From: Oscillospiraceae bacterium
GTDB lineage: Bacteria; Bacillota; Clostridia; Oscillospirales; UBA929
DNA: 41,685 nt
Assembly (NCBI GenBank): GCA_031271665.1
Contig: JAISVI010000060.1
Coordinates: 1 to 41,685 of the forward strand
Reading direction: 5' to 3'
Part shown: piece by piece, positions 893 through 27,523 of the stretch
Position numbering within the stretch: the stretch's first letter is position 1
Layout of the letters: each line of letters begins with the position of its first letter
Notes under the pieces: generated by a model
Told to the model about the DNA's origin: nothing
The model's input: the letters and a program-made list of their open reading frames with translations, nothing else
The model's database searches: none
Program-made: the position numbers and the translations under genes

Positions 893-1539
893 CACGTTGG
901 ATTGAAATTCCGATGCGTTACCCGTGCTCGCAGCGCCGCCGCTTCCGCCGCGAGGCGTTCAATCGCCGCAAAGTCCCCCGCGTCGATCAGCGATTCGGGC
1001 GCCATCCAGCTGCCGCCTACCGCCAGCACCTGCGGGATCTTCCAATACTCTTCCGCGTTCCGCGCGTCGATGCCGCCGGTCGGGACGAACCGCACACCGC
1101 CGAACGGGGCGGCGAGCGCTTTGACGGTAGCCGCGCCGCCGTAATTGGCGGCGGGGAAGAACTTAACCGCCGTCAGCCCCAGATTGAGCGCCGCGCAAAT
1201 TTCGGAGGGTGTCACAACACCGGGGATTACCGGCAACCGGTACGCCTGCGCTTGCCGCACAATCCCGGCGTCCAGGCCGGGGGAGACGATGAAGCGCGCG
1301 CCCGCGTCTTTCGCGTCTTTGAGCTGCTCTTGCGTCAGCACGGTGCCCGCGCCGACCAGCATGTCGGGAACCTCTTTTGCAATCGCCGCAATCGCGTCCG
1401 GCGCGGCGGCAGTGCGGAAGGTGATCTCGACGACGCCGACGCCGCCGTTTTTGAGCGCGAGCGCCAGCGGCGCCGCTTTCGCGGCGTCTTTGATTTTGAT
1501 GACCGGTACAATGCCGCAGCGTTCGATTTGTGTGAACAC
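889..1539 (-). CDS. eda: KDPG/KHG aldolase
   Basis: GGVGVVEITFRT, VGAGTVLT, FIVSPG, VKFFPA and FVPTGG motifs; 216 aa. Confidence 0.93.
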   Translation of the reverse strand: MFTQIERCGIVPVIKIKDAAKAAPLALALKNGGVGVVEITFRTAAAPDAIAAIAKEVPDMLVGAGTVLTQEQLKDAKDAGARFIVSPGLDAGIVRQAQAYRLPVIPGVVTPSEICAALNLGLTAVKFFPAANYGGAATVKALAAPFGGVRFVPTGGIDARNAEEYWKIPQVLAVGGSWMAPESLIDAGDFAAIERLAAEAAALRARVTHRNFNPTC

Positions 1540-2262
1540 TTACTTTGCCTCCGCCGCCTTCAGATCGTTGATGGCGTCGTCGGCCGCGTCTTTTTGAACG
1601 CGTGTGCTGTTGACATCCACCTTTACCTTATACAGGAAATCCCGCGCGGTACGCAAGTCCCCGATTTTTACGCTGAGCATCCCTGCCCGCAAGCAAAGCG
1701 ACGGGTTTTTCTGCGGCGGGATACGGACTGTTTGGAACGCGGTTATGTATGTCTTCTGCGCTTCGGCGGCGGCGTACTGCTCCATCTCGCGGTCTTCCGC
1801 GTCGGCGTAGATGTTGCTCAGTTTCAGCCATAAGCCGGCTTCCACAAGCGCGTGATCGGAAAACCCCACCGCGGCGCATTGCAGGGCAAGGTAATACCGC
1901 TCGAACACCGCGTCGCTGTTTGGGGTTTCGAGCCACGGCGAAAGCGACGGCAGAAACGGCGCGAGCCGTTCCAGAATCATTTTCCGGTGGGAGAAGATGA
2001 TCTTGTCGAACAGAATCGTCTGCGCCGAATAAAAACACTTCGGGCAGGTGGTAATCTCGTAATACAATGGTTCTACATCCTTAAACGCCGTCCGCAATTC
2101 GCCGATCCGCAGCGGAATCAGCTTGACGTCGCGTATTTTGAGCGCTTTGAAATCGGCTTTGCAGACGGGGCATTGGAACGCCCCCACAGACATATAGGCT
2201 TTGTCTTCTTTCATCGGAAGCCGGTAGCCGCCCTTGTGGCCGTCCGGGTACAGATTCGACAT
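1540..2262 (-). CDS. DUF2225-family Zn-binding/TPR-like protein
   Basis: CPVC...EPLYYEITTCPKCFYS followed by a helical TPR-like C-terminus. Start taken at MSNLYP. Confidence 0.7.
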   Translation of the reverse strand: MSNLYPDGHKGGYRLPMKEDKAYMSVGAFQCPVCKADFKALKIRDVKLIPLRIGELRTAFKDVEPLYYEITTCPKCFYSAQTILFDKIIFSHRKMILERLAPFLPSLSPWLETPNSDAVFERYYLALQCAAVGFSDHALVEAGLWLKLSNIYADAEDREMEQYAAAEAQKTYITAFQTVRIPPQKNPSLCLRAGMLSVKIGDLRTARDFLYKVKVDVNSTRVQKDAADDAINDLKAAEAK

Positions 2263-2311
2263 CGGTTCGCCCGCTTTCCTTTGTTTTTCGTTGTCCGGTT
2301 TATTATCGAAG

Positions 2312-2467
2312 TGTTGAAAATTGCGTGTTGACCTGAAAGGTGAACGAGCGCGGCGCTTGCGAGCAGGCACCTATGGCGCGGTATCGCAAAAGCGCCTGCT
2401 GCGAAGAGCGAGCTTGCTCGCTTGACAGCCGCGAAGCGGTAAAGCCGGAGCGGGCAATTTTTCAACA
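2312..2467. repeat. MITE-like structured element, copy 1
   Basis: Terminal inverted repeats TGTTGAAAATTGC / GCAATTTTTCAACA, internal hairpins, and a core shared with the element at 3926-4024. Confidence 0.65.
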
Positions 2468-2472
2468 TGCCC

Positions 2473-2501
2473 ATTATACCTTTTTTTTACGGGTCTGTAA
2501 A
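2473..2501 (-). promoter_or_regulatory. Putative sigma-A promoter for DUF2225-eda
   Basis: Minus strand TTTACA-N17-TATAAT; the spacer contains an A8 tract. Confidence 0.6.
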
Positions 2502-2614
2502 GCCAGCATTTACAAAATCGTAAAAAATGCTTCATGGCGAAGACATAATTACCGCTTATTATGGAACCATAGAATCGCCGGGTTAAAGCTGGCAAGAGAA
2601 AGGACGGTTCAATC

Positions 2615-3865
2615 ATGGAACCTAATCAGCACTTCGAGTTTCAAATTGAGCGGCCTGCCGCTCCCGCAGCGAAGAGGCGCCGGTTTATGCCGATGTACAT
2701 CGCGCTCTTTCTGGCGTTTACCCTGCTTGTTGGCGGCGCGGGCGGCGCAGTCGGCTACTACATGAGCGAAAACGGCGAACCGGAGCCTTTGCAGCAGCAA
2801 CAACCTGACAACACCGATCCTGCCAATACCGGGAAAACGCCGGACAAGACGGCGGTTCCTGCGGCGGCTCTGCCTTCGGCGCAAGGCGGGAGCGCACTGA
2901 GTATCCAAGAGATATTCGAATTCGGCGACCGCTCCACCGTGGCCATCTCGACGATGACCGACAGCGTCAACGTTTTCGGGCAGCCGGTTTCGCAGGCGTC
3001 GGCCGGTTCGGGATTTGTGCTGACGGCGGACGGGTATATCTTAACAAACCATCACGTGATTGACGGCGCTTCCGACATCGCCGTATTGCTGTACGACGGA
3101 TCGGAATACCCCGCCGAAATCATCGGCGGCGACATGAAAACCGACATTGCCGTGCTCAAGATAGACGCGGAGGGCTTAATTCCGGTGCAGATCGGCGACT
3201 CCGACAGCTTAAAGGTCGGCGATCAGGTCGTGGGGATCGGCAATCCGCTGGGGGAACTGGCGAACTCGCTCACCGTCGGACACCTGAGCGCGAAAAAACG
3301 CATCATCTCGATTGACGACACCCCGCGTCAGATGCTCCAGATTGTCGCGTCGGTTTCGCCGGGCAACTCCGGCGGTCCGCTGTTCAACATCAGCGGGCAG
3401 GTCATCGGCGTGGTGTCGGCGAAGACGGTGGCGGACGGCGTAGAGGGGATCGGGTTCGCCATCCCGATCAATCTTGCGGCCGACATCGCAAACGAATTGA
3501 TTCAGAACGGCAAAGTTACAGGCCGTCCGCTATTGGGGATTTCCTACCAAGAACTGGCCGTTTTGGATAACGCGGACGATTATCCGAAGGGCGTGTATGT
3601 AGCGCAGGTAAACCCCGGCAGCGCCGCGGAGACAGCGGGTCTCAAAGATGGCGACGTGATTACCGCTTTTGAAGGCGAACGCATCACTTCCGGTTCCGGG
3701 CTGCTGATCGCGAAAGATTTATGCCGCGTAGGCGACACGGTCACGGTCACAGTCTGGCGGAGCGGGCAGGAGATCGACCTTTTGGTGACCTTTACCGAGG
3801 AAGCCGAGGAGGTAACAGAACAGCCAACCAACCAGAATCCGTATTTCAACCCTTGGGGAAGATAA
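2615..3865 (+). CDS. htrA: HtrA/DegP-family serine protease (TM, trypsin domain, one PDZ)
   Basis: GSGFV, TNHHVI, DIAVLKI and SPGNSGGPL catalytic motifs; N-terminal TM segment; C-terminal PDZ. Confidence 0.93.
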   Translation: MEPNQHFEFQIERPAAPAAKRRRFMPMYIALFLAFTLLVGGAGGAVGYYMSENGEPEPLQQQQPDNTDPANTGKTPDKTAVPAAALPSAQGGSALSIQEIFEFGDRSTVAISTMTDSVNVFGQPVSQASAGSGFVLTADGYILTNHHVIDGASDIAVLLYDGSEYPAEIIGGDMKTDIAVLKIDAEGLIPVQIGDSDSLKVGDQVVGIGNPLGELANSLTVGHLSAKKRIISIDDTPRQMLQIVASVSPGNSGGPLFNISGQVIGVVSAKTVADGVEGIGFAIPINLAADIANELIQNGKVTGRPLLGISYQELAVLDNADDYPKGVYVAQVNPGSAAETAGLKDGDVITAFEGERITSGSGLLIAKDLCRVGDTVTVTVWRSGQEIDLLVTFTEEAEEVTEQPTNQNPYFNPWGR

Positions 3866-3925
3866 TTGGGGAGGTTGCAGACAAAGCCGTTTTGCTCCGA
3901 GCGAAGCGGATTGTCAAATGAGAAG

Positions 3926-4024
3926 CTCTAAAAACCTCATGTTCGCCGTTAGGCGAACGAGCGGAGCGCTTGCGAACAGGCGCTTTAGCGCGGCATCGCA
4001 AGCCGGAGCGGGAGGTTTTTAGAG
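3926..4024. repeat. MITE-like structured element, copy 2
   Basis: Perfect 13-bp terminal IR CTCTAAAAACCTC / GAGGTTTTTAGAG. Core matches copy 1 at 40 of 48 aligned columns, plus shared AAGCCGGAGCGGG. Confidence 0.65.
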
Positions 4025-4119
4025 TGCCATAAGTGAGGAAACTGGAGCAAAATCACAGTTTTGTGAAGTTTTACGAACTTGCCGGGCAAAACGGCGCATG
4101 GCTGCGCTACTACGTGTCT

Positions 4120-4872
4120 TCAGCCGGGCATCTGCCTGCCCGCGCTGTCAACGCTGTACTCGCCATAATGAAGCATTTCGCTTACCGCGCACAAATCAAA
4201 GCCGTCGCGCTGAAGGGTCTGGATAACGCCCGGAAGCGCGGCGGCTGTGTGCGTTGCGCCAAGGTTGAACAGAATTATGGAACCCGGCCCGGTTTCCTTA
4301 ATGACGCGCTTTTGAATGTCCGCCGCATCCGCGCCCTTCCAGTCAAGGCTGTCCACATCCCACTGAATCGCGGTCATTCCGGCGCTGTTCACGGCCGTGA
4401 TGACTTTGTCGTCATATTCGCCGTACGGGATACGGAAAAGCGCCGGGGTGACGCCGGTCGCGGCGGCTATCGCCTCGCCGGCGCGGCGCACGTCGGACTC
4501 TATTTCACTTGAACTCATTCTTGTCATATGCGCGTGGGCGTCCGAATGGCTCATGACCTCGTGTCCCGCCTGGGCAAGGGCGCTTGCGGAATCGGGGTAC
4601 GCGCGCGCCCATTCGCCGGTGACAAAGAACGTGGCGCGTACGCCATGCCGCGCCAGAACGTCGATAATAACCTCGACATCCGCGCTGTTTTCCGAAACGT
4701 CAAAGGTAAGCGCGGCGGTGTTATACTCCCGGCTTACGCTCATAACGGGCATAAGCCGGGCGGCGGGCGCGCCGAATAGGCCGGGGCTTATCCAATAGGC
4801 AAGCCCCGTGCCGATGCCCACCGCAAGCAAAAGAAGAATAAGCACACGCAGACGCACAAATATCACCTTCAT
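4120..4872 (-). CDS. Polysaccharide deacetylase (CE4), sporulation PdaB-like
   Basis: ALTFD, ATFFVTG, HSDAH, FRIPYG and WDVDSLDW motifs; N-terminal TM; GGAGG RBS. Confidence 0.85.
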   Translation of the reverse strand: MKVIFVRLRVLILLLLAVGIGTGLAYWISPGLFGAPAARLMPVMSVSREYNTAALTFDVSENSADVEVIIDVLARHGVRATFFVTGEWARAYPDSASALAQAGHEVMSHSDAHAHMTRMSSSEIESDVRRAGEAIAAATGVTPALFRIPYGEYDDKVITAVNSAGMTAIQWDVDSLDWKGADAADIQKRVIKETGPGSIILFNLGATHTAAALPGVIQTLQRDGFDLCAVSEMLHYGEYSVDSAGRQMPG

Positions 4873-4890
4873 AATACACACCTCCCGGAC

Positions 4891-4925
4891 ATGTATATGC
4901 GGACATGACGCAAGTCATGTCCGCA
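4891..4925 (-). promoter_or_regulatory. 12-bp hairpin overlapping a possible sigma-E-type promoter of the deacetylase
   Basis: TGCGGACATGAC-GCAA-GTCATGTCCGCA perfect stem. The minus strand reads ACATGAC-N14-CATATACAT, sigma-E-like spacing with a weak -35. Confidence 0.4.
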
Positions 4926-4939
4926 CAGGCACGTATGTT

Positions 4940-6688
4940 TTAAACGGCGGGTAAAACCGGCGGCGCGGCAGAGAGGCTCTTTTCCTCAAGCTGCGCCTTC
5001 GTGGCGGCCGCGCCGGGGTAGTGAAGCAGTTCAAGCTTGTGCCAGTACAGTATAAGCGTTTCCGGCAGAGCCGGGTCGCCGAAGGCCCCGGACTGGAAGT
5101 TGCGGGTCGTCTCGCGCCAAAGCGCCTCGCGGTTTTGGGCAAGCGGGGCGGAGATGTCGGTGGAAAAAAGGAAGTCGTCGTTCCAGTACCATTTGCCGTT
5201 CTCGTCCCGCGCAAGGAAGTCATAGCGGCTGAACTCCCTGTAGACGCGCCCGCCGCCCGCGCCGGAGCTTACAACGGGCGTATGCTCATCGGCATAGGCA
5301 AGTTTGAATTTAAACATAAGCTCGAAAAGCGCGGCGTACGCGGCGTTCTTCATAACTCGCTTGGACTCGAACCTGCCCGCGGACTGCGCGGCGGCGAACT
5401 CCTTGGCCGCGCCGCTTGTGGCGGTGGGGTCGCGGCGGCCAAGGAACGAGTCGGTGATGCCGATTGCCTGCCGCGCCTCTTCATAGACATGGTTTTGATA
5501 GGTAAGGTCGCCGGAGATATTGGGTTGGACGTTCACAACGTCTATCATCTGCTTCTGGGCGGGGTTATCAAGGTAAATTATCTTCAGCTCGCCGTCGGTC
5601 TTGTCAACGCTTACCCCGGCGGGCAGGGTGACGTAACTGCCGCCCTTCAGAAGCTTTTCTCCGATTTTGGTGGAAAGCTTTTTCACGGTGTTCTGCTGGT
5701 CGCGTATCTTGTCCGCGTCCGAATCGCCCAAAAGCTTCCCGTAAGAGGAGACGTTCTTGCGGATAATTATCGGATAGCGTCCGGGCTTATAGTACGGTAT
5801 AAGCGTCGGAATGCCGTTTTCAACGGCCGGAATGACGCTTGCGTCACTGCGCACAATGTCGCGCCGAAGCATTTCGTATTCGTCCTCGCGGGACGAAAAT
5901 TTCTCCCCTCCGCAGTTTTCGCACACGCCGTACCCCGGCGCGCCGCAACTTTCACAGGTATAGCTCTGCCGCGCCTGATAGTCCTCCATGTCGCAAAGCA
6001 CCGTGTCGCCCGCCCAAGAGAAAAGGCCGACGCCGCCGCCTTCGCCGCGGTAATAGGCAAAGCACTGGGTCACAAGCTCGCTTTCCGCGTCTGCGGCGTC
6101 ATCCCACCCGTTATTCCCGTCCGCTCCGTCAACTTTTTTGCCGTATCTGCGGTAGATTGACTGGCGGGTCTGGGGCAGGGTGAAGATAAAATAGTCCATG
6201 CTCTCCACGCCCTCGGTAACGCCGGGCTGGGGAAGAATCCTGCTTGGGTGCAGAAGCCTTACGGAAAGCTTACCCGCGGACTCCTTCCCGCCGCTTCCCG
6301 CGGGTTTGCTGTCCCACTCGCAAAGGAACAGCCCCGCGCCCTGGATAAGCGCCGTGCGCTCCTGCATATCGTTCATGGTTTCAAAGTCCATGCGGTCAAG
6401 CTCGTTGCGAAGCATGTCCTCGATAAGCGCGGCAAGACCCTCGTCCTGCTTCCTGCGCGCCGTGACTTTGGGCTGCGGAACGGCGCTGTCAATTTGCGCG
6501 TCGATAAGCTCGGCGATTATATTGCGCACATGGGTGGCGGATTTCGCGCGTCCGCGCCCGTCCGCCGCCGTGATGGCGCTTTCCCCGGCATACAACCTCT
6601 CGCGCTCGTCCATAAGCGCAAGTTCGCCCGCGAAGGCCGCCTCGGCCTTCGCGTACCTCTCGCGCCAAAGCTCTAATTTTGCGTTCAT
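4940..6688 (-). CDS. Phage portal protein (P22-like/podoviral type) with Zn-ribbon insertion
   Basis: Directly downstream of terL; 582 aa. RNIIAELIDAQIDSAVPQPKV...GAGLFLCEWD and LGRRDPTATSGAAKEFAAAQ resemble portal motifs. Contains CESC...CENC. Confidence 0.75.
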   Translation of the reverse strand: MNAKLELWRERYAKAEAAFAGELALMDERERLYAGESAITAADGRGRAKSATHVRNIIAELIDAQIDSAVPQPKVTARRKQDEGLAALIEDMLRNELDRMDFETMNDMQERTALIQGAGLFLCEWDSKPAGSGGKESAGKLSVRLLHPSRILPQPGVTEGVESMDYFIFTLPQTRQSIYRRYGKKVDGADGNNGWDDAADAESELVTQCFAYYRGEGGGVGLFSWAGDTVLCDMEDYQARQSYTCESCGAPGYGVCENCGGEKFSSREDEYEMLRRDIVRSDASVIPAVENGIPTLIPYYKPGRYPIIIRKNVSSYGKLLGDSDADKIRDQQNTVKKLSTKIGEKLLKGGSYVTLPAGVSVDKTDGELKIIYLDNPAQKQMIDVVNVQPNISGDLTYQNHVYEEARQAIGITDSFLGRRDPTATSGAAKEFAAAQSAGRFESKRVMKNAAYAALFELMFKFKLAYADEHTPVVSSGAGGGRVYREFSRYDFLARDENGKWYWNDDFLFSTDISAPLAQNREALWRETTRNFQSGAFGDPALPETLILYWHKLELLHYPGAAATKAQLEEKSLSAAPPVLPAV

Positions 6689-6722
6689 TTTGTCTCTCCT
6701 TTGATTTTATTCGCAGGGGCGC

Positions 6723-8210
6723 TCAAGCGCCTGCATGCCCCCATTTGGCGCTTAGGTACGCCTTCCCCTCCGCGCTGGCGCGGCGGTAGTCCTCCCACAT
6801 GTCCTCGGTCCAAAGCCTGCGCGCCTCGGGGGGCGGCTCGACGCTCATGCGCATCTGCGGGCGTATGTAATGCGCTATGGCAAGCGCCATTACGCAGTCG
6901 TCGTGCGCGCCGCGCTCGGCTTCCGGGCGCAGGTTCTCGTTTCGCACAAAGGTAAGCATTTCAAGAAGCGTTGTCTCATCCTGAACAAGCGCCATATCCT
7001 CCCGCAGGGCGGCGATAAGCCCCGACAGCATAACGGGGCGCGTAAGCGAGGTTGTGCGCACGCCATAGCTGTTTTTCGCGCGGCGGGTGATGCTGTCCTC
7101 CTCTTCGCGCACGTAAAGCCTTGGATAGCCAAGGCGCTCGAGTTCCCGTATGGGGTACGTCGAAAAATTCGTCTCCACACCGATAAGGGCGTTATTGTAA
7201 AACCGCCCCAGCGCGTCAAGCTGTCCGGCGAAAACATCCTCGTCAAAGCGGTGTCGCAGGACGGCGACCTGACTTCCCGTGACATTGTCAATCACCTGAC
7301 CCACAAAGCAGTCCGAGCCGCCGCCCGCCGTGTCGCCGCCGATGACATACGGCCTTCCCGGCTGCGGCGGGACGTATATCTTTATAAAGCCGTCCGCGTC
7401 GTCCGTAAACTCCGCGCCTCGCGCCCTTTCGCCGCGCAAGGCGAACATCCCGGTTCTAAGGGGGCGAATGCCAAGGGCAAGCCGCGCGCGTACGCTTTTT
7501 GCGTTAAACACGCTTTTCCCCGCGCAGCCCCACTGGCCAAGGCAGTATACGTCATAGTAATATTCGTCCGTTTCCTTAAAACCCTCCAGAACGCGCTTAT
7601 ACTCCGCGTCAAGGAAACGGTTGTCCCTATAGGTGCTGTGGTGAAGCCTTGTATTTGGGCGCTTAATGTCAAAGAACCGCTTTTTAAGCCAGTGGGTGAC
7701 AGAAACGGGGTTAAAGCTTAGGATAATCTGCTTATAGTAAACGGTCTTGCCGCGAAGGCGCAGGTCAAGCTGGTCAAAGTCGCCTTCGCAGAGTTCGCTT
7801 GCCTCTTCTATCCATATCCCGGTAATATTATAGACGCTTTTAAGCTTCTCCGCGTCGTCAAGCCCGGCAAACAGTATTTCCGAACCGTTCTTAAACGATA
7901 TTCTCATATCGCCGCTTCTTATCTGAGAAACCTTTCCGGGGTAGTGAAGGGACGCCTGCTCGCAAAGCTGTTTGAAACAGCTTTCGCGCAGGGTGCGCGC
8001 GACCTTGCGGCACACAAGAAGCCGATGCCCCTTCTCAAGCGCGGCCCGTTCAAGAATCTTGCGCCCCGCGAAAACGCTTTTGCCCGAGCCGCCGCCGCCC
8101 ATAAGCACAAGATAGCGCGACTCGTCAAAGAAAAGCGGCATAAATGAAGGGTTTGTGGTTTCGCGCAGCCGCCTGTACCACCCCGCCACACGCCCGATCT
8201 TGCTTTGCAT
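6723..8210 (-). CDS. Phage terminase large subunit (PBSX-family)
   Basis: Walker A GGGGSGKS, Walker B IWIEEASE, SFNP coupling motif, nuclease motifs IGGDTAGGGSD and HDDCVMALA; AAAGGAGG RBS. Confidence 0.92.
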   Translation of the reverse strand: MQSKIGRVAGWYRRLRETTNPSFMPLFFDESRYLVLMGGGGSGKSVFAGRKILERAALEKGHRLLVCRKVARTLRESCFKQLCEQASLHYPGKVSQIRSGDMRISFKNGSEILFAGLDDAEKLKSVYNITGIWIEEASELCEGDFDQLDLRLRGKTVYYKQIILSFNPVSVTHWLKKRFFDIKRPNTRLHHSTYRDNRFLDAEYKRVLEGFKETDEYYYDVYCLGQWGCAGKSVFNAKSVRARLALGIRPLRTGMFALRGERARGAEFTDDADGFIKIYVPPQPGRPYVIGGDTAGGGSDCFVGQVIDNVTGSQVAVLRHRFDEDVFAGQLDALGRFYNNALIGVETNFSTYPIRELERLGYPRLYVREEEDSITRRAKNSYGVRTTSLTRPVMLSGLIAALREDMALVQDETTLLEMLTFVRNENLRPEAERGAHDDCVMALAIAHYIRPQMRMSVEPPPEARRLWTEDMWEDYRRASAEGKAYLSAKWGHAGA

Positions 8211-8223
8211 AAAAACCTCCTTT

Positions 8224-8354
8224 TGATAATTGACAATGAACAATTGACAATTATTAGTATTCGGGGCTTTGAGAAATGTTTGATTCCGAGTTCAATCTTG
8301 AAACTAGTCCTAATTGTCAATTGTCAATTGTTAATTGTTAATTGTTAATTGTCA
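8224..8354. repeat. Heptamer tandem repeats (TGACAAT/ATTGTYA) in two inverted arms
   Basis: Four TGAYAAT/GAACAAT units at 8224-8251 and six ATTGTCA/ATTGTTA units at 8313-8354. Confidence 0.9.
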
Positions 8355-8721
8355 ACTCCGCCGCGGCTTTGCGGATAATTTCAAGCGCTTCGGACGGGGA
8401 AATGGGTTCGTCCTCTTTTGGCGGTTCGGGGTCTTCCGGGGTAAAGACCCCCGCGCCGCGCCCAAGCAGTTCAAGCGCCTTCATCTTGTCGTAAAGTTTG
8501 AATTTAAGGCTGCCGTCCTTCGATACCGTGATCTCCGAAATGGGGCCGCCGTCCACTTTGCGCGAGTCTTTAAGGATGTACTCCTGCCTTGGCGGTTCTT
8601 CTCCGTCTTTGACCGTGCGGTATTCAAGATAGTCGGTGACGTCGGCAAAGGCGATGCGGCGAAGCTGGTCAAGCACCGCTTCCCCGACCGGCTTTTCCGA
8701 ATTTTCCGGTTTCCGTCTCAT
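8338..8721 (-). CDS. Terminase small subunit (short)
   Basis: VLDQLRRIAFADVTDY...ISEITVSKDGSLKFKLYDKMKALELLG matches the C-terminal signature of Firmicutes phage TerS. ATGA overlap with the upstream gene; lies upstream of terL. Confidence 0.8.
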   Translation of the reverse strand: MRRKPENSEKPVGEAVLDQLRRIAFADVTDYLEYRTVKDGEEPPRQEYILKDSRKVDGGPISEITVSKDGSLKFKLYDKMKALELLGRGAGVFTPEDPEPPKEDEPISPSEALEIIRKAAAELTINN

Positions 8722-9140
8722 GCCGCGTCCCTCCCGTACCCGGCCGCCATCAGGCAAAGCGCCTGGGCATGAAGCCGATGGACATGGCGCACCGAAAACG
8801 AACACTGCTCGGCAACGGCCTCCCACGTGGAAAACCCAAGGTAATGCGCCTCCATAACGGCGCGGTGACGGGGGTCGGGAAGCGTTCTTTCAATAAGTTC
8901 CTGCACACTTCGGATAAGTACGCCGTAGTCAAGCACGTCCGCGACAAGCGCCTCGCGCAGTCTCTCCAGCTCGGCGCGCGCCGCGTCAAGCCGCGCGGAG
9001 CCGGGAAGCGCGCAAAGACTTTTCGCAAGCGCCTCCAAGCGGGTAATGCGGGTCTTCTTTTCGTTAAGAGAGCGCGCCGCCCCCCGCGGCATGTTAAGCG
9101 CGCGCCTGACGGCCCAGACGGACGGGTCATTTTTGTTCAT
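8718..9140 (-). CDS. Phage late-transcription regulator-like protein (DUF1492/ArpU-like sigma-region-4 HTH)
   Basis: Coiled N-terminus, then LPDPRHRAVMEAHYLGFSTWEAVAEQCSFSVRHVHRLHAQAL. Canonical position immediately upstream of terS. Confidence 0.75.
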   Translation of the reverse strand: MNKNDPSVWAVRRALNMPRGAARSLNEKKTRITRLEALAKSLCALPGSARLDAARAELERLREALVADVLDYGVLIRSVQELIERTLPDPRHRAVMEAHYLGFSTWEAVAEQCSFSVRHVHRLHAQALCLMAAGYGRDAA

Positions 9141-9424
9141 GCCGCGCCGCCCCCCGCTCGCAGATTCCGCGTGTCGCTCATAAACCGTATAAATTCCGGC
9201 GTGACAGTCTCGGCAAATTCCAAAAGTTCCTCGCGAGTGGCGTCGGTGAAAATATATTCCGCCACGCAAGCCCCGTGCAAAAGACCGTCCGGGCAGGAAA
9301 CAACCTCGTCATCCGGCCACAGCGGCCCGCCGCACTGCACACAGTATTCCGGTTCATTCAGACGCGTATCCTCAAAGGGTTCACCGCCCGCACATTGCGG
9401 GCAGCCGCACAAATAATTGTTCAT
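9137..9424 (-). CDS. Small Cys/His-rich phage-type zinc-finger protein
   Basis: CGCPQC...CVQC...C...HGAC; AAGGAG RBS; ATGA overlap with the next gene. Confidence 0.7.
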   Translation of the reverse strand: MNNYLCGCPQCAGGEPFEDTRLNEPEYCVQCGGPLWPDDEVVSCPDGLLHGACVAEYIFTDATREELLEFAETVTPEFIRFMSDTRNLRAGGGAA

Positions 9425-9530
9425 GGCTCTCCTTCTTCTATTATTGTCAAGCAGTCTGTATACTGCGCTTGTACGCGCTGTTATGACATGCGCGGTAATT
9501 TGTTATAAAAATATTTGTCCATGTTATTCT

Positions 9531-9566
9531 TTTTCTGTTGACAATTGTCAAAGAAAATGTAATAAT
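9531..9566 (+). promoter_or_regulatory. Palindromic operator / candidate repressor-gene promoter
   Basis: Perfect 14-bp palindrome TTGACAATTGTCAA (9538-9551) flanked by TTTTCT/AGAAAA. On the plus strand it reads TTGACA-N17-AATAAT. Confidence 0.5.
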
Positions 9567-9609
9567 TATGAATGGTATGTGGCCCGTACCCAGACAAGCC
9601 ATCGTTGAG

Positions 9610-9638
9610 ATTATAGCACAAACGTTTGGTTTTGTCAA
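9610..9638 (-). promoter_or_regulatory. Consensus sigma-A promoter pointing into the packaging operon
   Basis: Minus strand TTGACA-aaaccaaacgtttgtgc(17)-TATAAT with an extended -10 TG. Confidence 0.8.
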
Positions 9639-9684
9639 CCCAGTGTTTCCCATACTTAATTATTTTACAAGGGGGATTATATCA

Positions 9685-10044
9685 ATGCTTCCCGAACAAC
9701 TAAAACTGCTTCCCGAAAGAGTCAAAAATCTTCGCGAAAGCCGCGGCTACAGCCAGCGCGTTCTTGCCGGAATGCTCGGCGTGTCCCAACAGACGATTGC
9801 CGGTTGGGAAAGGTCGCGGACAAGCCCCGACAGACGAATGGTTTCAAAAATGGTCGGCATCTTCGGTGTCACCTCGGACTATCTGCTTGGTATAAGCGAT
9901 TCCCGCCACGGCGAAGCCAGCGAAAAAGACCGCGCATATCTGGAAATGGCCAGAACCCTTCGTGAATACGGCATTACGCCCGAAGAGCTTGAGGTTATTA
10001 TGGGCGCGCACAAAAAGTTTATGGAGCTTACAAGCAAGCACTAA
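9685..10044 (+). CDS. XRE-family HTH repressor
   Basis: RVKNLRESRGYSQRVLAGMLGVSQQTIAGWERSRTSP...FGVTSDYLLG; divergent from the phage-like operon. Confidence 0.88.
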   Translation: MLPEQLKLLPERVKNLRESRGYSQRVLAGMLGVSQQTIAGWERSRTSPDRRMVSKMVGIFGVTSDYLLGISDSRHGEASEKDRAYLEMARTLREYGITPEELEVIMGAHKKFMELTSKH

Positions 10045-10098
10045 GGGTTACGATTTTCACGGGCCGTGCGGGTTTTCCTAAAAACCTTGCAAAAAATT

Positions 10099-10135
10099 AA
10101 ACCCGCCCCGGCATTGGCCGCAGGCGGGTTTTTTC
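10099..10135. terminator. Probable bidirectional intrinsic terminator between xre and ftsH
   Basis: AAACCCGCC...GGCGGGTTT stem flanked by A-rich and T-rich tracts, between convergent genes. Confidence 0.7.
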
Positions 10136-10156
10136 TTGGTTTCACAGTATTGCGTT

Positions 10157-12022
10157 CTATGTCGGGACTTCGACCTCATAGCCGTCCGTACCCTCGTCGG
10201 GCATACGCCCGGTTTTGAAGTAACGCTCGAACTCAACCGAGTCCATCGTTTCGTGTTCAAGGAGATAGTCGGCCACCGCGCGAAGCTTATCCATATGCGC
10301 GGACAGAATCGACTCGCAGCGTTCATAGGCGTTGTCCACAAGGCTTTTTATCTCGCGGTCGATCTGCGCGGTGCTTTCTTCCGAGAACGCGCGGGTGTGG
10401 CCGTAATCGCGTCCGAGGAAAACCTCTTCGTTGTCGGTGCCGTAGTTAATCGGCCCGAGGATATCGCTCATGCCGTATTTTGTGACCATGCTGCGGGCGA
10501 TGCTTGTAACCTTTCTTATATCGCTTGACGCGCCGGTGGATATGTCGCCAAGCACAAGCTTCTCCGCCACACGCCCCCCCAGAAGGCCGACCATGCGGTC
10601 AAGCATCTCGTTCTTGCTTACAAAGTCCTTATCCTCTTCGGGAAGGGTTATCGTCATGCCGCCGGCCATGCCGCGCGGGATTATCGAAATCTGGTGAACG
10701 GGGTCGGAATGTTCAAGACTGCGGATTGCCACGGCGTGTCCCGCCTCGTGATAGGCGGTAAGCTTCCGGGACTTTTCCGTGACGACACGGCTTCTCTTCT
10801 CCGGTCCGGCGATAACCTTTATCATGGCCTCTTCAAGCTCGCTCATGCCAATCGCGCGCTTAGAGCGCCGGGCGGCCAGAAGCGCCGCCTCGTTAAGAAG
10901 GTTTTCCAGATCCGCGCCGGTAAAGCCGGGCGTAGTCTTCGCGACTATGTTAAGGTCAACGCCCTCGTCAAGCGGCTTATTCTTTGCGTGAAGCTTAAGA
11001 ATAGCCTCGCGTCCCCGGATGTCCGGGATGCCGACATAAACCTGGCGGTCAAAGCGGCCCGGGCGCAGAAGCGCGGGGTCAAGGATGTCAACGCGGTTTG
11101 TCGCGGCGAGTATAATAACGCCCTCGTTCGCGGAAAACCCGTCCATTTCGACAAGAAGCTGGTTAAGCGTCTGCTCGCGCTCATCGTGTCCGCCGCCCAT
11201 GCCCGCGCCGCGGTGACGACCCACGGCGTCGATTTCGTCGATAAAGATTATCGACGGCGATACCTTCTTTGCCTCTCCGAACAAGTCGCGCACGCGCGAC
11301 GCACCCACGCCGACATAAAGCTCTACAAAGTCCGAGCCGGAGATTGAAAGGAACTGCACGCCGGCCTCGCCCGCGACGGCTTTCGCCAGAAGCGTCTTGC
11401 CGGTACCCGGCGGGCCGACAAGCAAAACGCCCTTCGGTATCCTCGCCCCAATCTCAACAAAGCGCTTGGGCGACTTCAGAAATTCGACGATCTCGTGAAG
11501 CTCTTCCTTTTCCTCTTCCGCGCCTTGGACGTCGTTAAAGGTGTATTTCTTCTTCTCGTCGCTTACAAGGCGGGGATTGGCGCGCTTAAAGGTCATGGCG
11601 CGGCTTTCGCCGCCGCCGGTGCGGTTCATCATAAAGAACCAAAGCGCGATAAACACCACGATTATAAGCACGTACGGGATGAACATGACCCACCACGGCG
11701 GTTCCCACCCGGGCTTATAGTCATATTCCGTAAGCTTGCCCTGCGCCGTCTGCGCCTCGATCTCCGCGCCCAGATCCTGACGGAAAAACTCAATGCTTAG
11801 AAGCTTATAGGACTTTCTCGTCTTATCCTTCATATACATCGTCATCTGGCCATTTGCCTCGATCACAAAGCTTTCGACCTGTTCCTGACGGAAGTCCCGC
11901 AAAACCTCGGAATACTTCATCGGTTCGGGTTTGTTCGCATCGTAAAGAACGCTGACCACCACCACGAGAATGATGATGATCACCAGATAAAACAGAATGT
12001 CCTTCGGGTCGGCTTTTTTCAT
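10157..12022 (-). CDS. ftsH: ATP-dependent zinc metalloprotease FtsH
   Basis: Two TM segments; [24 protein letters not shown] and HEAGH motifs. Confidence 0.98.
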
Positions 12023-24819: not shown

Positions 24820-25096
24820 TAAAATTGTCAGGCTTTTTTATCGCTGAGTCAGGCTTTTTTATCGCTGCTTTTTTATCGCTGCCGCCGGCCAGTGAATCAA
24901 TATCGGACGCGGCGGGCAGCGCCTCCCCGCGTTCAAGCACCTCTTCAATGCGTCTTTCAAGCACGTCCTTTGCCATAATAACCGCTTCCTCAAGCGTTGC
25001 TCCTTCGGTGTAGCATGGCTGAATATCCGGAAACTTTACAAAGAACCCGCGTTCCTCTCTGGTGAACACGGCAGGATACACGTATTTCATTTTCAT
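24797..25096 (-). CDS. hicB: HicB-family antitoxin, N-terminal domain only (probably truncated)
   Basis: MKYVYPAVF...FFVKFPDIQPCYTEGATLEEAVIMAKDVL...LPAAS. The C-terminus runs through a tandem repeat; no hicA nearby. Confidence 0.75.
   Translation of the reverse strand: MKMKYVYPAVFTREERGFFVKFPDIQPCYTEGATLEEAVIMAKDVLERRIEEVLERGEALPAASDIDSLAGGSDKKAAIKKPDSAIKKPDNFIAIQTYL
24827..24881. repeat. Short direct repeats
   Basis: GTCAGGCTTTTTTATCGCTG twice (24827-24846, 24848-24867) plus CTTTTTTATCGCTG. Confidence 0.9.
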
Positions 25097-25137
25097 GGCA
25101 GAACCCCCTTGGTTATTTCAATTTTGCATCTGTCAAT

Positions 25138-25569
25138 CTATATACAATCATTCATCGGAGAACTGCCAAATTTCCTTTTATGTCCACCGGCTTTCCAGTC
25201 TCTCAATCGTTTTCCGCGTAATGTCGCCTTTGTTGTTGCGGTATTAAGGACTAAGCAAAAATAACAAGTTGCGCCATGCAGTTCGGGTTGCAACATGCGA
25301 TATGACTGCTGCAATTGATCGATAGCATGCTTGATTTTTTTGTAACTTGATAATTCTATGAAGTAAGCAGCGTTTTTGTCGTCATTAATTACCAGAAAAT
25401 CACACCGTATAGGCTGAGTATTTGGAGGGAAAATATCCCCATCCAGTTTATACTGCCGAACGTGATTTTTATCGCAATTGTATGCATTGTGTACGATCTT
25501 GTTTTCTGACGAGATTATATGTTCCTCTTGTGGCGAACAACGAGATTTGGCATTTCTAAGATATTCCAT
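25138..25569 (-). CDS. Hypothetical PD-(D/E)XK-like partner of the AAA ATPase
   Basis: RCDFLV...AYFIELS...HAIDQL; overlaps the ATPase 3' end; AT-rich. Confidence 0.55.
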   Translation of the reverse strand: MEYLRNAKSRCSPQEEHIISSENKIVHNAYNCDKNHVRQYKLDGDIFPPNTQPIRCDFLVINDDKNAAYFIELSSYKKIKHAIDQLQQSYRMLQPELHGATCYFCLVLNTATTKATLRGKRLRDWKAGGHKRKFGSSPMNDCI

Positions 25570-26830
25570 CAAGTTGTGTCTCCTTTTGATGAATGTACTT
25601 ATCGAATAACCAGTCAAAGCTATCATTTATATCTCCGGACACACCATCAATAAGTTCGTTAATAATCAATCCGTCTGTGTCAGACAACGCAACTTTCACT
25701 TGCCTTTCATCTATGTGAAAAGCACCAAATTGTTTAGGTAACAGCCATTTCCGCTTATGAATTCTGCTCTTTACATCTTCGTCTAAGAGCTTGCCACACA
25801 AAAGCAATACATTAAACTGCGCGAGTATATACGGGCTATGCGTTGTTACCATAACCGAGTTTTTCGCGTGCGCAAATCCATTTCTGGCAAATATGCTTAG
25901 AAGCTCAACAATTTTCGCCTGTGCGTCAGGATATAGATGGGCTTCAGGTTCTTCAACTATAAACAGAACATTTCTATTGTGATAAGTCAAATACTGCATA
26001 ATATTCAGAACCCACAGGGCTTCCTGTTGTCCTGATGAAGCAAAGTTGATTTTTACATATTTAGATTTGCCATAATAAAGGCGCTCTTGATAATCCTCAT
26101 ATTTATAAACTCCACCCAAAAGTTTTTCACTCTCACTATGAAGCAAGTTAAATACACGCATCATTTCATCATCCTCTTTATTCGGCGAGGGTGCTGCCTC
26201 CGCAAAGAAGGGCCGTGCCTTAATAATAAGTCTTAGGAATTCACGTGTACTATAGTCAATTTTCTCAGAAAACTCTTTGTCCGCTTGCAACATAAAATAG
26301 TTAAGCACATCTGTAAGCAAAGTAATCATACTTCTGCCAGCAGGAACGAACACAACATCCGCATTATCATCAAAAACTTCAAAAACGCGCTGACTAATGC
26401 GCTCGAAATCTCTTGTGGATATTTGCGTTGTCATCATTTTACCTATATCATACATTTTATCTTCCAGTGAATGACTGAATTCCACGTTGTAATACTTATC
26501 GCTGCTAAGAGTTATGGTAGTTTGCACTTTATCCGAGAAGAAGTATTCCACTTTCATTGTCGAAGGCATAATAAAAGATGGCCCAAATAACAGTTTGAGC
26601 TTTTCTTTCAAAACATGTTGTAGTTCATGTTTGATACTTACACTCTTTCCTTGTATTTCATCTTTTGAAATTAAATCAATCAGCTCGTTTTTAATCGTAC
26701 GAAAAAAATACACTAATCTTACAATCGTGCTTTTACCACTGGCTTGTGATCCCGTGAAAACTAAAAACTCATTCATTTCTATTTCGCATTTAGTTAAGGG
26801 TCCAAAATTGTTGATTGTAATTTTATGCAT
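25556..26830 (-). CDS. ABC-type AAA ATPase (AAA_15/AAA_21, AbiEii/OLD-like)
   Basis: ITINNFGP, GSQASGKST, FVPAGRS, ASSGQQ, IVEEPEAHLYP and VTTHSPY motifs. Confidence 0.88.
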   Translation of the reverse strand: MHKITINNFGPLTKCEIEMNEFLVFTGSQASGKSTIVRLVYFFRTIKNELIDLISKDEIQGKSVSIKHELQHVLKEKLKLLFGPSFIMPSTMKVEYFFSDKVQTTITLSSDKYYNVEFSHSLEDKMYDIGKMMTTQISTRDFERISQRVFEVFDDNADVVFVPAGRSMITLLTDVLNYFMLQADKEFSEKIDYSTREFLRLIIKARPFFAEAAPSPNKEDDEMMRVFNLLHSESEKLLGGVYKYEDYQERLYYGKSKYVKINFASSGQQEALWVLNIMQYLTYHNRNVLFIVEEPEAHLYPDAQAKIVELLSIFARNGFAHAKNSVMVTTHSPYILAQFNVLLLCGKLLDEDVKSRIHKRKWLLPKQFGAFHIDERQVKVALSDTDGLIINELIDGVSGDINDSFDWLFDKYIHQKETQLDGIS

Positions 26831-26862
26831 AACTGCTCCTCTTCATAACAGATTGTGGAAAG

Positions 26863-26892
26863 ATAATATCATAGACTTTCTTGAACTGTCAA
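26863..26892 (-). promoter_or_regulatory. Putative sigma-A promoter of the ATPase island
   Basis: Minus strand TTGACA-N18-TATTAT. Confidence 0.5.
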
Positions 26893-26923
26893 GTTTGAAT
26901 TGATTCAAACGAAACCGCCGACG

Positions 26924-27523
26924 CTACATCTTCCCCCTTACCCGCAGAGGCAGTCCAAGGCGGCGGGCAAGGTTTTCACAGGCGGGCGCGTCGGCTTCGC
27001 CCTCTACAATACTCAAAACAACCTCGGGGATATGGGCTTTCGCTTTAGCGGCAAAATCAAGCACCGCGTCAAACGCGCCCTCGCCGTGTTCGGGGCGGCA
27101 GACGCGCGCGTAGTCCCGCGCGTTCGCGGCGTTAAGGGACACGGACGCGCAGTCGATAAGCCCGTTAAACTCCGGGGTTATGTCGCGCCCCGCGATAAGA
27201 CTTCCCTGTCCGTTTGTGTTAAGGCGCACGCGCATACCCGGCCATTCGCTTTTTATCTGTCTCGCGACACCGGTAAGCGCGTCAAGGCGCTCGGTCGGCT
27301 CGCCAAAGCCGCAGAAAACAATCTCGCCGCAGTCTGCCGCGCCCATCCGGCGCAGCGCGGCAAGCACCTCTTCCTCCTGCGGCTCGCGGTCAAGCCAAAG
27401 GCTTTCCGCCTCGCCCACCGCGCTTTGCCCCTCGCGCACGCAGAAGGCACAGCGGTTTGAACAGCGGTTTGTAAGATTGATATAAAGGTTTTTACCTACC
27501 CTGTACACCGGTTGGAATGCCAA
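26924..27523 (-). CDS. TatD-associated radical SAM protein
   Basis: NLYINLTNRCSNRCAFCVR (CxxxCxxC), LWLDREP, EIVFCGFGEP and RLNTNG motifs. Start uncertain (TTG 27523 or GTG 27508). Confidence 0.88.
   Translation of the reverse strand: MAFQPVYRVGKNLYINLTNRCSNRCAFCVREGQSAVGEAESLWLDREPQEEEVLAALRRMGAADCGEIVFCGFGEPTERLDALTGVARQIKSEWPGMRVRLNTNGQGSLIAGRDITPEFNGLIDCASVSLNAANARDYARVCRPEHGEGAFDAVLDFAAKAKAHIPEVVLSIVEGEADAPACENLARRLGLPLRVRGKM

Follow-up and report, generated by a model that had tools for sequence, protein, structure and literature searches.

The window analysed here is the whole of contig C141 (41,685 nt) in the metagenome-assembled genome (MAG) of an Oscillospiraceae bacterium, and its positions 4940-10044 hold a cassette of six intact phage-type genes, in which a gene for an XRE-family repressor stands divergent from genes for a Zn-ribbon protein, a sigma-region-4-like putative activator, the small and large terminase subunits (TerS and TerL) and a portal protein. 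We regard this cassette, hereafter Locus A, as the likely control, packaging and portal locus of an element that occupies at least three scattered loci and is a candidate gene transfer agent (GTA). The balance of the sequence evidence tips towards a multi-locus, co-regulated, domesticated podovirus-type element that is maintained by a termite-gut genus and resembles a GTA or PBSX; the production of particles is putative and would depend on head genes that are absent from the assembly. A sequence-only reading of this DNA had taken the cassette to be stand-alone and a minimal set, which has to be revised, since the cassette forms a single transcription unit within a larger regulon that extends to contig C65 and, as signalled there, to the edge of contig C101. 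The option of a split GTA, raised in the same reading, proved to be the best fit, given the tail and lysis locus on C65, the signal on C101, purifying selection, conserved regulatory DNA and a TerS without a DNA-binding domain.

The source genome (G000) comprises 2.03 Mb in 168 contigs and is 94% complete, and its nearest relative is an Oscillospiraceae MAG from termite gut. Together with its closest species (G001, 82% complete) and with G002 it makes up one termite-gut genus of three species.

Separate units and their regulatory DNA

The second unit, Locus B, was found because proteins encoded downstream of the major capsid protein (MCP) gene in relatives match contig C65 of the source genome, where a compact operon (Table 1) lies between a 2-oxoacid-dehydrogenase-like gene on one side and nrdG and nrdD on the other. 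An equivalent six-gene operon is present in G001 with different host genes around it, and in G006 and at loci L079-L082 an adaptor gene and a gene for a 617-aa protein follow directly after that for the MCP. Conservation between G000 and G001 is limited to the first ~60 residues in the 211-aa protein and to the peptidoglycan-binding (PG-binding) part in the endolysin; conserved N-termini and variable C-termini are typical of tail fibres and lysins. An IMG/VR pattern scan gave no relative of the 615-aa protein. The 353-aa protein was considered as a hidden capsid protein and rejected, the Atlas search having returned hypothetical viral proteins and a model of poor quality, neither of which gave a capsid signal. 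The search for orphan capsid or tail clusters elsewhere in the genome that had been proposed from the sequence alone yielded a tail and lysis operon and no capsid.

A late motif precedes the adaptor gene in each of the three species, TGTC(A/C)TTG(T/A)ATGTCAC-N10-TGGTA(T/G)C(A/C)T. When searched for as CNTTGNATGTCAY-N13-TANNNT, for which reversed-pattern controls gave 0 matches, the full site occurs exactly twice in G000, at C65:9012 before Locus B and at C101:81-111, exactly twice in G002, before the head unit and before Locus B, and once in G001, before Locus B, with none in G006, G014 or G019. The site on C101 faces the contig end and is followed by GGAGGTGA, an ATG and seven codons (MSKQTIK), at which point the contig stops; for comparison, the N-terminus of the head unit's small first protein reads MSKATYAG in G006 and MKTTLAGK in G002. 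As the late motif heads the unit of small protein, scaffold and capsid genes in G002, the head genes of G000 are probably in an assembly gap, and on this sequence comparison the head unit most likely begins at the C101 edge. The shortest contig in the G000 assembly is 2516 bp, which suggests that shorter contigs were excluded, and a head unit of 1.6-2.3 kb (that of G002, with its small protein, scaffold and MCP, is ~1.6 kb) could therefore be missing from it. No other G000 contig overlaps the start of C101, and IMG/VR holds no exact match to its first 40 bases.

A further contig, C124, was linked to the window by an operator that it has in common with the leftward promoter P_L of Locus A. The palindrome CAAACGTTTG has 2 copies in the whole genome, one in P_L and one at C124:13477, each within the spacer of a TTGACA...TATAAT-type promoter, and the copy on C124 is preceded by a weaker copy of the late motif. 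P_L and the xre promoter are placed face to face in the intergenic region between the xre and Zn-ribbon genes, and P_L, its palindrome-bearing spacer and the -35 of the xre promoter are all conserved between G000 and G002. Beside P_L, at window positions 9447-9602, an ATG that lies 7 nt past the -10 opens a possible leaderless reading frame of 51 codons ahead of the Zn-ribbon gene.

The N-termini of the three larger proteins of the C124 operon resemble signal sequences or membrane anchors, none of its proteins could be placed in a Pfam or PHROG family, and a search of five relatives with the 517-aa protein gave no homologue. By sequence the operon is read as species-specific cargo under the same repressor; the idea that it was a hidden head module was discarded on account of these membrane-anchored or secreted-looking proteins and their lack of families and homologues. 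A k-mer comparison of the regions upstream of Locus A and Locus B gave no common motif.

Location at several loci together with co-regulation is a trait of GTAs, and it would be seen here in C141, C65, the C101 edge and, as cargo, C124, which are tied together by the late motif and the operator; all four contigs also carry genome-wide repeats. A second such trait is the lack of a replication or integration module: Loci A and B contain regulators, packaging, structural and lysis genes only, and there is no integrase or replication gene at any locus examined.

If these parts work as their families suggest, the XRE protein would bind the palindrome in P_L and keep the operon off, and derepression would lead to synthesis of the Zn-ribbon protein, the sigma-region-4-like activator, TerS, TerL and portal. 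The activator would then switch on, in trans, the late promoters of the head and the tail/lysis units, and procapsids would assemble on the portal. With a TerS that has no DNA-binding domain, TerL would package DNA by the headful without sequence preference, so that mostly host DNA would be packaged, and holin and endolysin would release the particles.

Locus A and the related phage family

The cassette lies between a deacetylase gene and ftsH, as the sequence-only reading had it, and its genes are intact, with the family matches given in Table 1. The two ATGA overlaps are present (9140-9137 and 8721-8718), and the portal stop is close to the next host gene as described, at 58 nt from the start of the deacetylase gene and not the ~70 given. 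Also borne out was the absence of an integrase, a capsid gene and an att-like repeat: tyrosine recombinases were not found on C141, the genome's matches being confined to C149 and C30, searches of the whole assembly gave no capsid homologue, and no direct repeat that brackets the cassette was found in its flanks. Logan contigs, an independent assembly from the probable source run, cover 4078-8252 and 8326-11182 at a depth of 14.6-17.6, equal to that of the flanks, and as they bridge the junctions at this depth both borders of Locus A with host DNA are real and the element is single-copy. The Logan assembly is interrupted at the heptamer arrays of the terS-terL gap. Among the sequencing runs listed as containing this DNA there was one DNA run, the probable source, and no RNA run. 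Codon usage and GC3 in the cassette do match the host genes, as had been said, but this is not diagnostic because related viral contigs of other hosts score alike under the host-trained model, and codon style was dropped as evidence of domestication.

Table 1. Features of the element and its surroundings (window positions unless another contig is named; aa, amino acids; ORF, open reading frame)
Feature	Position	Strand	Remarks
Polysacc_deac_1 gene	4120-4881	-	Host flank beyond portal
Imperfect hairpin, 21-nt arms	4889-4934		Directly 3' of portal stop; no U-tract
Portal, 582 aa, P22-like	4940-6688	-	phrog_156, 6.8e-36; P22_portal N-terminus, 32.2 bits vs cut-off 26.1
TerL	ORF 6723-8243, likely 6723-8210	-	Terminase_3, 1.3e-48; TIGR01547 (PBSX family), 162.7 bits vs 105
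Heptamer arrays (ACAATTR)n	8223-8356		31-nt inverted arms 57 nt apart in terS-terL gap; overlap terS 3' end
TerS, 127 aa	8338-8721	-	Terminase_2, 34.9 bits vs 26.1
act, putative late activator, sigma region-4/RinA(DUF1492)-like	8718-9140	-	Sigma70_r4, 18.3 bits; phrog_36, 2.6e-7
CxxC-rich (Zn-ribbon) protein, 95 aa	9137-9424	-	No family; first gene of leftward operon
xre promoter, rightward	9538-9566	+	TTGACA-17-AATAAT, 11/12; overlapped by palindrome TTGACAATTGTCAA
XRE-family repressor, 119 aa	ORF 9538-10044, likely start 9685	+	HTH_3, 8e-15
P_L, leftward promoter	9610-9638	-	TTGACA-17-TATAAT, 12/12, TG extension
Palindrome CAAACGTTTG	9619-9628		Putative XRE operator within P_L spacer
GC-rich hairpin, A/T runs both sides	10090-10134		Between convergent xre and ftsH
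ftsH	10157-12022	-	Host flank beyond xre
Locus B operon, six genes	C65:9087-14549 (5.46 kb)		Between host genes; genes in order below
Locus B gene 1			SU10-adaptor-like protein
Locus B gene 2			615-aa virion structural protein, phrog_3287
Locus B gene 3			211-aa fibre-like protein
Locus B gene 4			M15/PG-binding endolysin
Locus B gene 5			Holin
Locus B gene 6			353-aa protein
C124 operon	C124:9539-13554		131-aa protein, two 288-aa paralogues (57% identical), 517-aa protein with internal duplication

TerS of G000 consists of the oligomerisation core and a C-terminal tail, and the N-terminal helix-turn-helix (HTH) DNA-binding domain is absent. The proteins of G000 and G001 match only positions 64/65 to 130/131 of Terminase_2, whereas the 173-aa TerS of G002 matches 1-130 including the HTH, and in an alignment the two shorter proteins begin directly after that domain; judged by these sequences, the DNA-binding domain has been lost within the genus. 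A TerS without a sequence-specific DNA-binding domain is thus predicted for both G000 and G001, and loss of the N-terminal DNA-binding domain is proposed by Sherlock et al. (PMC6854486) as the defining trait of GTA-type TerS. A search of the PDB with TerS gave only spurious ubiquitin-repeat matches.

TerL has two domains, an ATPase like that of Sf6 gp2 and a nuclease like that of T4 gp17, and its TIGR01547 match spans the N-terminal domain; the likely start is the ATG at 8210, preceded by AAAGGAGG, the frame being open to 8243. The portal core is complete against relatives. At portal residues ~244-262 (window 5950-6010) there is a CxxC...CxxC zinc-ribbon insertion which is seen in five of the six aligned homologues, the exception being G019, and its length is highly variable, with ~100 additional residues in G029. 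The activator gene act is confined to the three species of the genus, and the Sigma70_r4 score of its product is below the cut-off of 24.1 in G000, whereas that of the G002 orthologue (28.3) is above. No homologue of the 95-aa CxxC-rich protein was found in any relative locus compared. The hairpin behind the portal gene is likely to mark the end of the leftward operon, and that between xre and ftsH reads by eye as a bidirectional terminator.

TerL orthologues with 60-75% identity occur in G001, G002, G006 and G029, with a partial copy (53%) cut by a contig end in G019, and portal orthologues with 46-75% identity in G001, G006, G008, G019 and G029. When genes are called with a host-trained gene caller, the portal gene of G029, G006, G008 and G019 leads into genes for a small protein, a protein resembling scaffolds (phrog_35275), one of 136 aa (phrog_24113) and the major head protein (phrog_371), and IMG/VR contigs of 41-43.5 kb have the identical late-gene order. 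Because relatives continue from TerL and portal into scaffold and MCP, Locus A can be recognised as the 5' part of a phage late operon, and by its sequence it corresponds to the segment for regulation, packaging and portal in a podovirus-type phage family that is common in Oscillospiraceae. Relatives of TerL are encoded on 108 IMG/VR contigs of up to ~46 kb and at 32 GTDB loci, 22 of which have a late operon including the MCP on the same strand, all except L074 in the order TerL, portal, small protein, scaffold, p136, MCP; three others (L075, L084 and L091) have TerL without an adjacent portal or capsid gene, and the rest are cut by a contig end or ambiguous. In the protein collection the portal family numbers 3499 members or more, and four relatives of the portal there (P0002-P0005) have 72-75% identity. 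In INPHARED the portal matches only 2 unannotated faecal contigs and no record covers >=80% of TerL, and among metagenome contigs no portal relative exceeded 65% identity in any one segment, full-length identity being about 50-60%.

Some of these relatives have features of their own. In G001 a RelB-antitoxin-like gene lies on the opposite strand between TerL and portal (L016, G001:C154, 2567-2908), and in G019 the same interval holds genes for a 722-aa collagen-repeat protein and a tail-fibre assembly chaperone (L017, G019:C99, 569-3172). L075 (8299-11476) and L091 (8399-11470), from MAGs of other genera, have in common an orphan module of XRE (68% identical), a small protein (51%) and TerL (62%) among unrelated flanking genes and with no adjacent portal or capsid gene, the TerL of L075 having 9 lone deviations at conserved columns. 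Compact late operons with no early region are found at L062, L072, L069, L070, L076 and L078, where nothing but host-like genes, or only XRE with three small genes, comes before them; one compact late operon is in the cultured Pseudoflavonifractor capillosus An386a (L078), the cultured strain An85 (L071) has a compact operon too, and it is possible that these operons are further GTA-like elements.

The intergenic gaps of both Loci A and B have been settled by two host-wide repeat families, which counts in favour of an element that is kept. The heptamer in the terS-terL gap was rightly called a host repeat, with 95 arrays on 63 of the 168 contigs, one of them a 6-unit array at 8311-8352; ACAATTGACAATT has 186 copies against ~0.06 expected, and 11 neighbouring pairs of arrays are oppositely oriented and <200 nt apart. 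The other family resembles miniature inverted-repeat transposable elements (MITEs), is ~110-170 nt long with inverted GTTGAAAATTGC ends, and is seen in the window at 2300-2478 and 3925-4025 and on C65 at 8996 and 11558-11660; the 12-mer GTTGAAAATTGC has 65 copies on 37 contigs, and as the Logan depth there is 1266-4357, against ~15-18 in the flanks, the repeat must be very widely shared in the sample. Elsewhere in the window, an AT-rich island at 25001-27000 (GC 0.38-0.40 against 0.56 for the genome) contains a low-scoring 337-aa ORF, and scans of the window with Rfam at gathering thresholds and for tRNA genes gave no match.

Inheritance, selection and alternative explanations

TerL is present in all three species of the genus, which form a clade both in the TerL tree (support 100/99) and in that of the 615-aa protein (100/100), where G006 and G014, of another genus, also group together (89/95). 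Between G000 and G001 the ratio of non-synonymous to synonymous substitution (dN/dS) is 0.14 for both TerL and portal and reaches 0.19 in the 615-aa protein, as against 0.11 and 0.19 for the host genes ftsH and hpt, and dS for the three element genes is 1.3-1.4 with host genes at 0.9-1.8. TerL and portal are 74-75% identical between the two species and the median of 18 host best matches is ~66%, three matches at <=34% having been dropped as paralogues and ftsH counted as two fragments. TerL, whose ATPase and nuclease motifs had been noted as intact from the sequence alone, has both domains and retains all 98 columns that are invariant among 24 sequences, with 0 lone deviations; the portal has 2, within a range of 0-10 over 22 sequences. 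On vertical inheritance under purifying selection, which is a further trait of GTAs, the signals are mixed: the genus is a clade in two genes and dN/dS is 0.14-0.19 with host-like dS, but there are three species only, dS is saturated, synteny is absent and phages may have co-diverged with their hosts.

A number of observations weigh against an element that is both domesticated and functional. The G000 assembly as it stands has no means of building a capsid: in tblastn searches, proteins from five loci found neither scaffold nor MCP in it, and a 7-sequence MCP profile, PF05065 and phrog_371 found no MCP. The profile also misses G001, a genome that is 82% complete, whilst it finds G002, G006, G008, G019 and G029, and in all the MCP occurs in 5 of 41 relatives. 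No portal was found in G002. The lead on C101 amounts to one promoter and seven codons and is no proof, and the link between activator and late motif is one of co-occurrence in three related genomes only. The equality of dS is weak evidence because dS is saturated, and phage lineages that are host-specific and co-diverge with their hosts could yield the same trees and dS. The catalytic domain of the endolysin and the C-terminus of the fibre diverge between G000 and G001, which points to exchange with other phages. Furthermore, TerL orthologues at E<=1e-80 are found in 4 of 30 genomes of the family, a patchy distribution, and the loci are not syntenic in the three species, the genes next to ftsH being others in G001 and G002 and Locus B having different flanks. 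Finally, all the genomes are MAGs.

Much of this would also be expected if the loci were inert leftovers, in which case one prophage was broken up by deletion and rearrangement, Loci A and B have not yet been disabled and the capsid genes are truly lost, an explanation that we consider rather unlikely but well worth weighing. It would account for the failure to find MCP or scaffold in G000 and G001, for the patchy and non-syntenic occurrence, and for the partial sets elsewhere, namely the orphan XRE, small gene and TerL of L075 and L091 and the TerL that stands alone in G006, and it accords with the full late operons or 41-46 kb viral contigs of most relatives. Against it, both units are intact in G001 with host-like dS and low dN/dS, the genus is a clade in two unlinked genes, TerL gives no signal of relaxed constraint, the non-coding promoters and operator have stayed alike in species that are saturated at synonymous sites, and another full late promoter is directed outwards at the end of a contig. 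The sequence-only reading had named in advance what would speak against domestication, and the outcome is mixed: patchiness at the level of the family, lack of synteny and distant relatives that are full phages were all encountered, but dN/dS is far below 1 and no congener has a full prophage at the site. An intact temperate prophage was rejected, as there is no contiguous genome of integrase, replication, head, tail and lysis genes, and the cassette is not a phage-inducible chromosomal island or other phage satellite because no integrase, replication or primase module or att repeat lies in or beside it.

It would seem improbable that the element is a capsid-less parasite or interference module which uses the procapsids of incoming related phages, whether to steal shells or to block the phage. 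Two congeneric MAGs do lack capsid genes while other structural genes are conserved, and the element has its own repressor and activator; however G002, of the same clade, retains scaffold and MCP under the same late promoter, the gene at the C101 edge resembles the start of a head unit, the lack of any contig <2516 bp leaves room for a missing unit of 1.6-2.3 kb, and there is no integrase or replication gene of satellite type. Nor did anything point to the interference module or the repurposed translocase that had been entertained from the sequence alone, PADLOC giving no defence family for nine of ten element proteins and only generic HTH models for XRE. Similarly improbable is the variant in which G000 and G001 are truly without capsid and scaffold and a selected set of motor, portal, adaptor, tail and lysis genes is completed by the procapsid shells of a related phage; were it true, such a shell-borrowing set would reverse the situation of those satellites which form their own capsids and steal nothing but tails. 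That the loci are an artefact of assembly or binning, and belong in reality to one contiguous and still infectious prophage or to different organisms, can hardly be credited. The MAG does consist of 168 contigs and the relatives' loci are on short contigs, but Loci A and B lie inside long ones (41.7 and 30.0 kb) and are flanked on either side by core host genes, the two junctions of Locus A are also spanned at host depth in the contigs of a second assembler, Locus B of G001 is likewise between host genes, and the four contigs have genome-wide repeats and regulatory motifs in common.

Relation to known systems

The domesticated, co-regulated element proposed here provides a concrete and testable set of GTA-candidate genes for the Oscillospiraceae and a readable control circuit, made up of a repressor operator, an activator and a late promoter of 26-32 nt that would mark every unit. 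This promoter motif is also a search handle, which led to the other loci and points to the expected place of the missing head genes. Should the element prove active, genes could flow by this route within the communities of the termite gut, and phage domestication would have a further, independent example.

Among published systems the one that comes nearest is FpGTA, from Faecalibacterium prausnitzii (Borodovich et al., Nat Commun 2026, PMC12946183), the likeness being one of described architecture and not of sequence. According to that account, FpGTA has two operons ~125 kb apart, one of 10.5 kb with TerS, TerL, portal, scaffold and MCP and one of 5.5 kb with tail and receptor-binding proteins, holin and endolysin, and its particles are podovirus-like, ~40 nm across and contain 8.4-8.9 kb of host DNA; the same account describes a TerS without an obvious DNA-binding domain and no replication genes. 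The FpGTA loci are at 2536737-2546346 and 2672270-2677176 of CP030777, and RCH50849.1 and RCH50851.1 are among its proteins. The paper further reports GTA-like packaging of host DNA in gut Ruminococcaceae and Oscillospiraceae, with candidate genes named there only for Faecalibacterium (PMC12946183). As far as this description goes, the two systems share the bacterial order, the podovirus type, the absence of replication genes, the split operons and a TerS without a DNA-binding domain, and Locus B, at 5.46 kb, corresponds in size and in kinds of genes to the 5.5-kb operon. They differ in that the head genes here are apart from TerS, TerL and portal, forming a unit of their own in G002 and not found in G000, and in that the packaging locus here includes an XRE switch and a sigma-like activator, with at least three units under a common late promoter.

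PBSX, the defective prophage of Bacillus subtilis, is a contiguous cluster of ~28 kb with a contractile tail that is kept by its host and packages host DNA, and its gene order runs from the xre repressor through a sigma-like positive factor directly to terS, terL and portal. The same arrangement of xre and a sigma-like factor upstream of terS, terL and portal is seen in Locus A, whose TerL belongs to the TIGR01547 family. Unlike PBSX, the element is scattered, with an adaptor of SU10 type and a P22-like portal.

With RcGTA and other alphaproteobacterial GTAs the element has in common several loci and possibly vertical inheritance under purifying selection, as well as a TerS without the N-terminal DNA-binding domain, as PMC6854486 describes it for such GTAs. 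The structural genes of RcGTA are however unrelated, siphovirus-type with an HK97 head, and RcGTA is run by the host regulators CtrA and GafA and not by a phage-type XRE switch.

Related by sequence are the Oscillospiraceae gut phages and prophages of ~41-46 kb in IMG/VR and GTDB, whose TerL is 57-66% and portal 51-60% identical, whose late genes have the same order and which also match in the families of scaffold, MCP and adaptor. Whilst these are contiguous and have long early regions, the element of the termite-gut genus totals ~12-13 kb in separate places and retains only regulators, structural and lysis genes.

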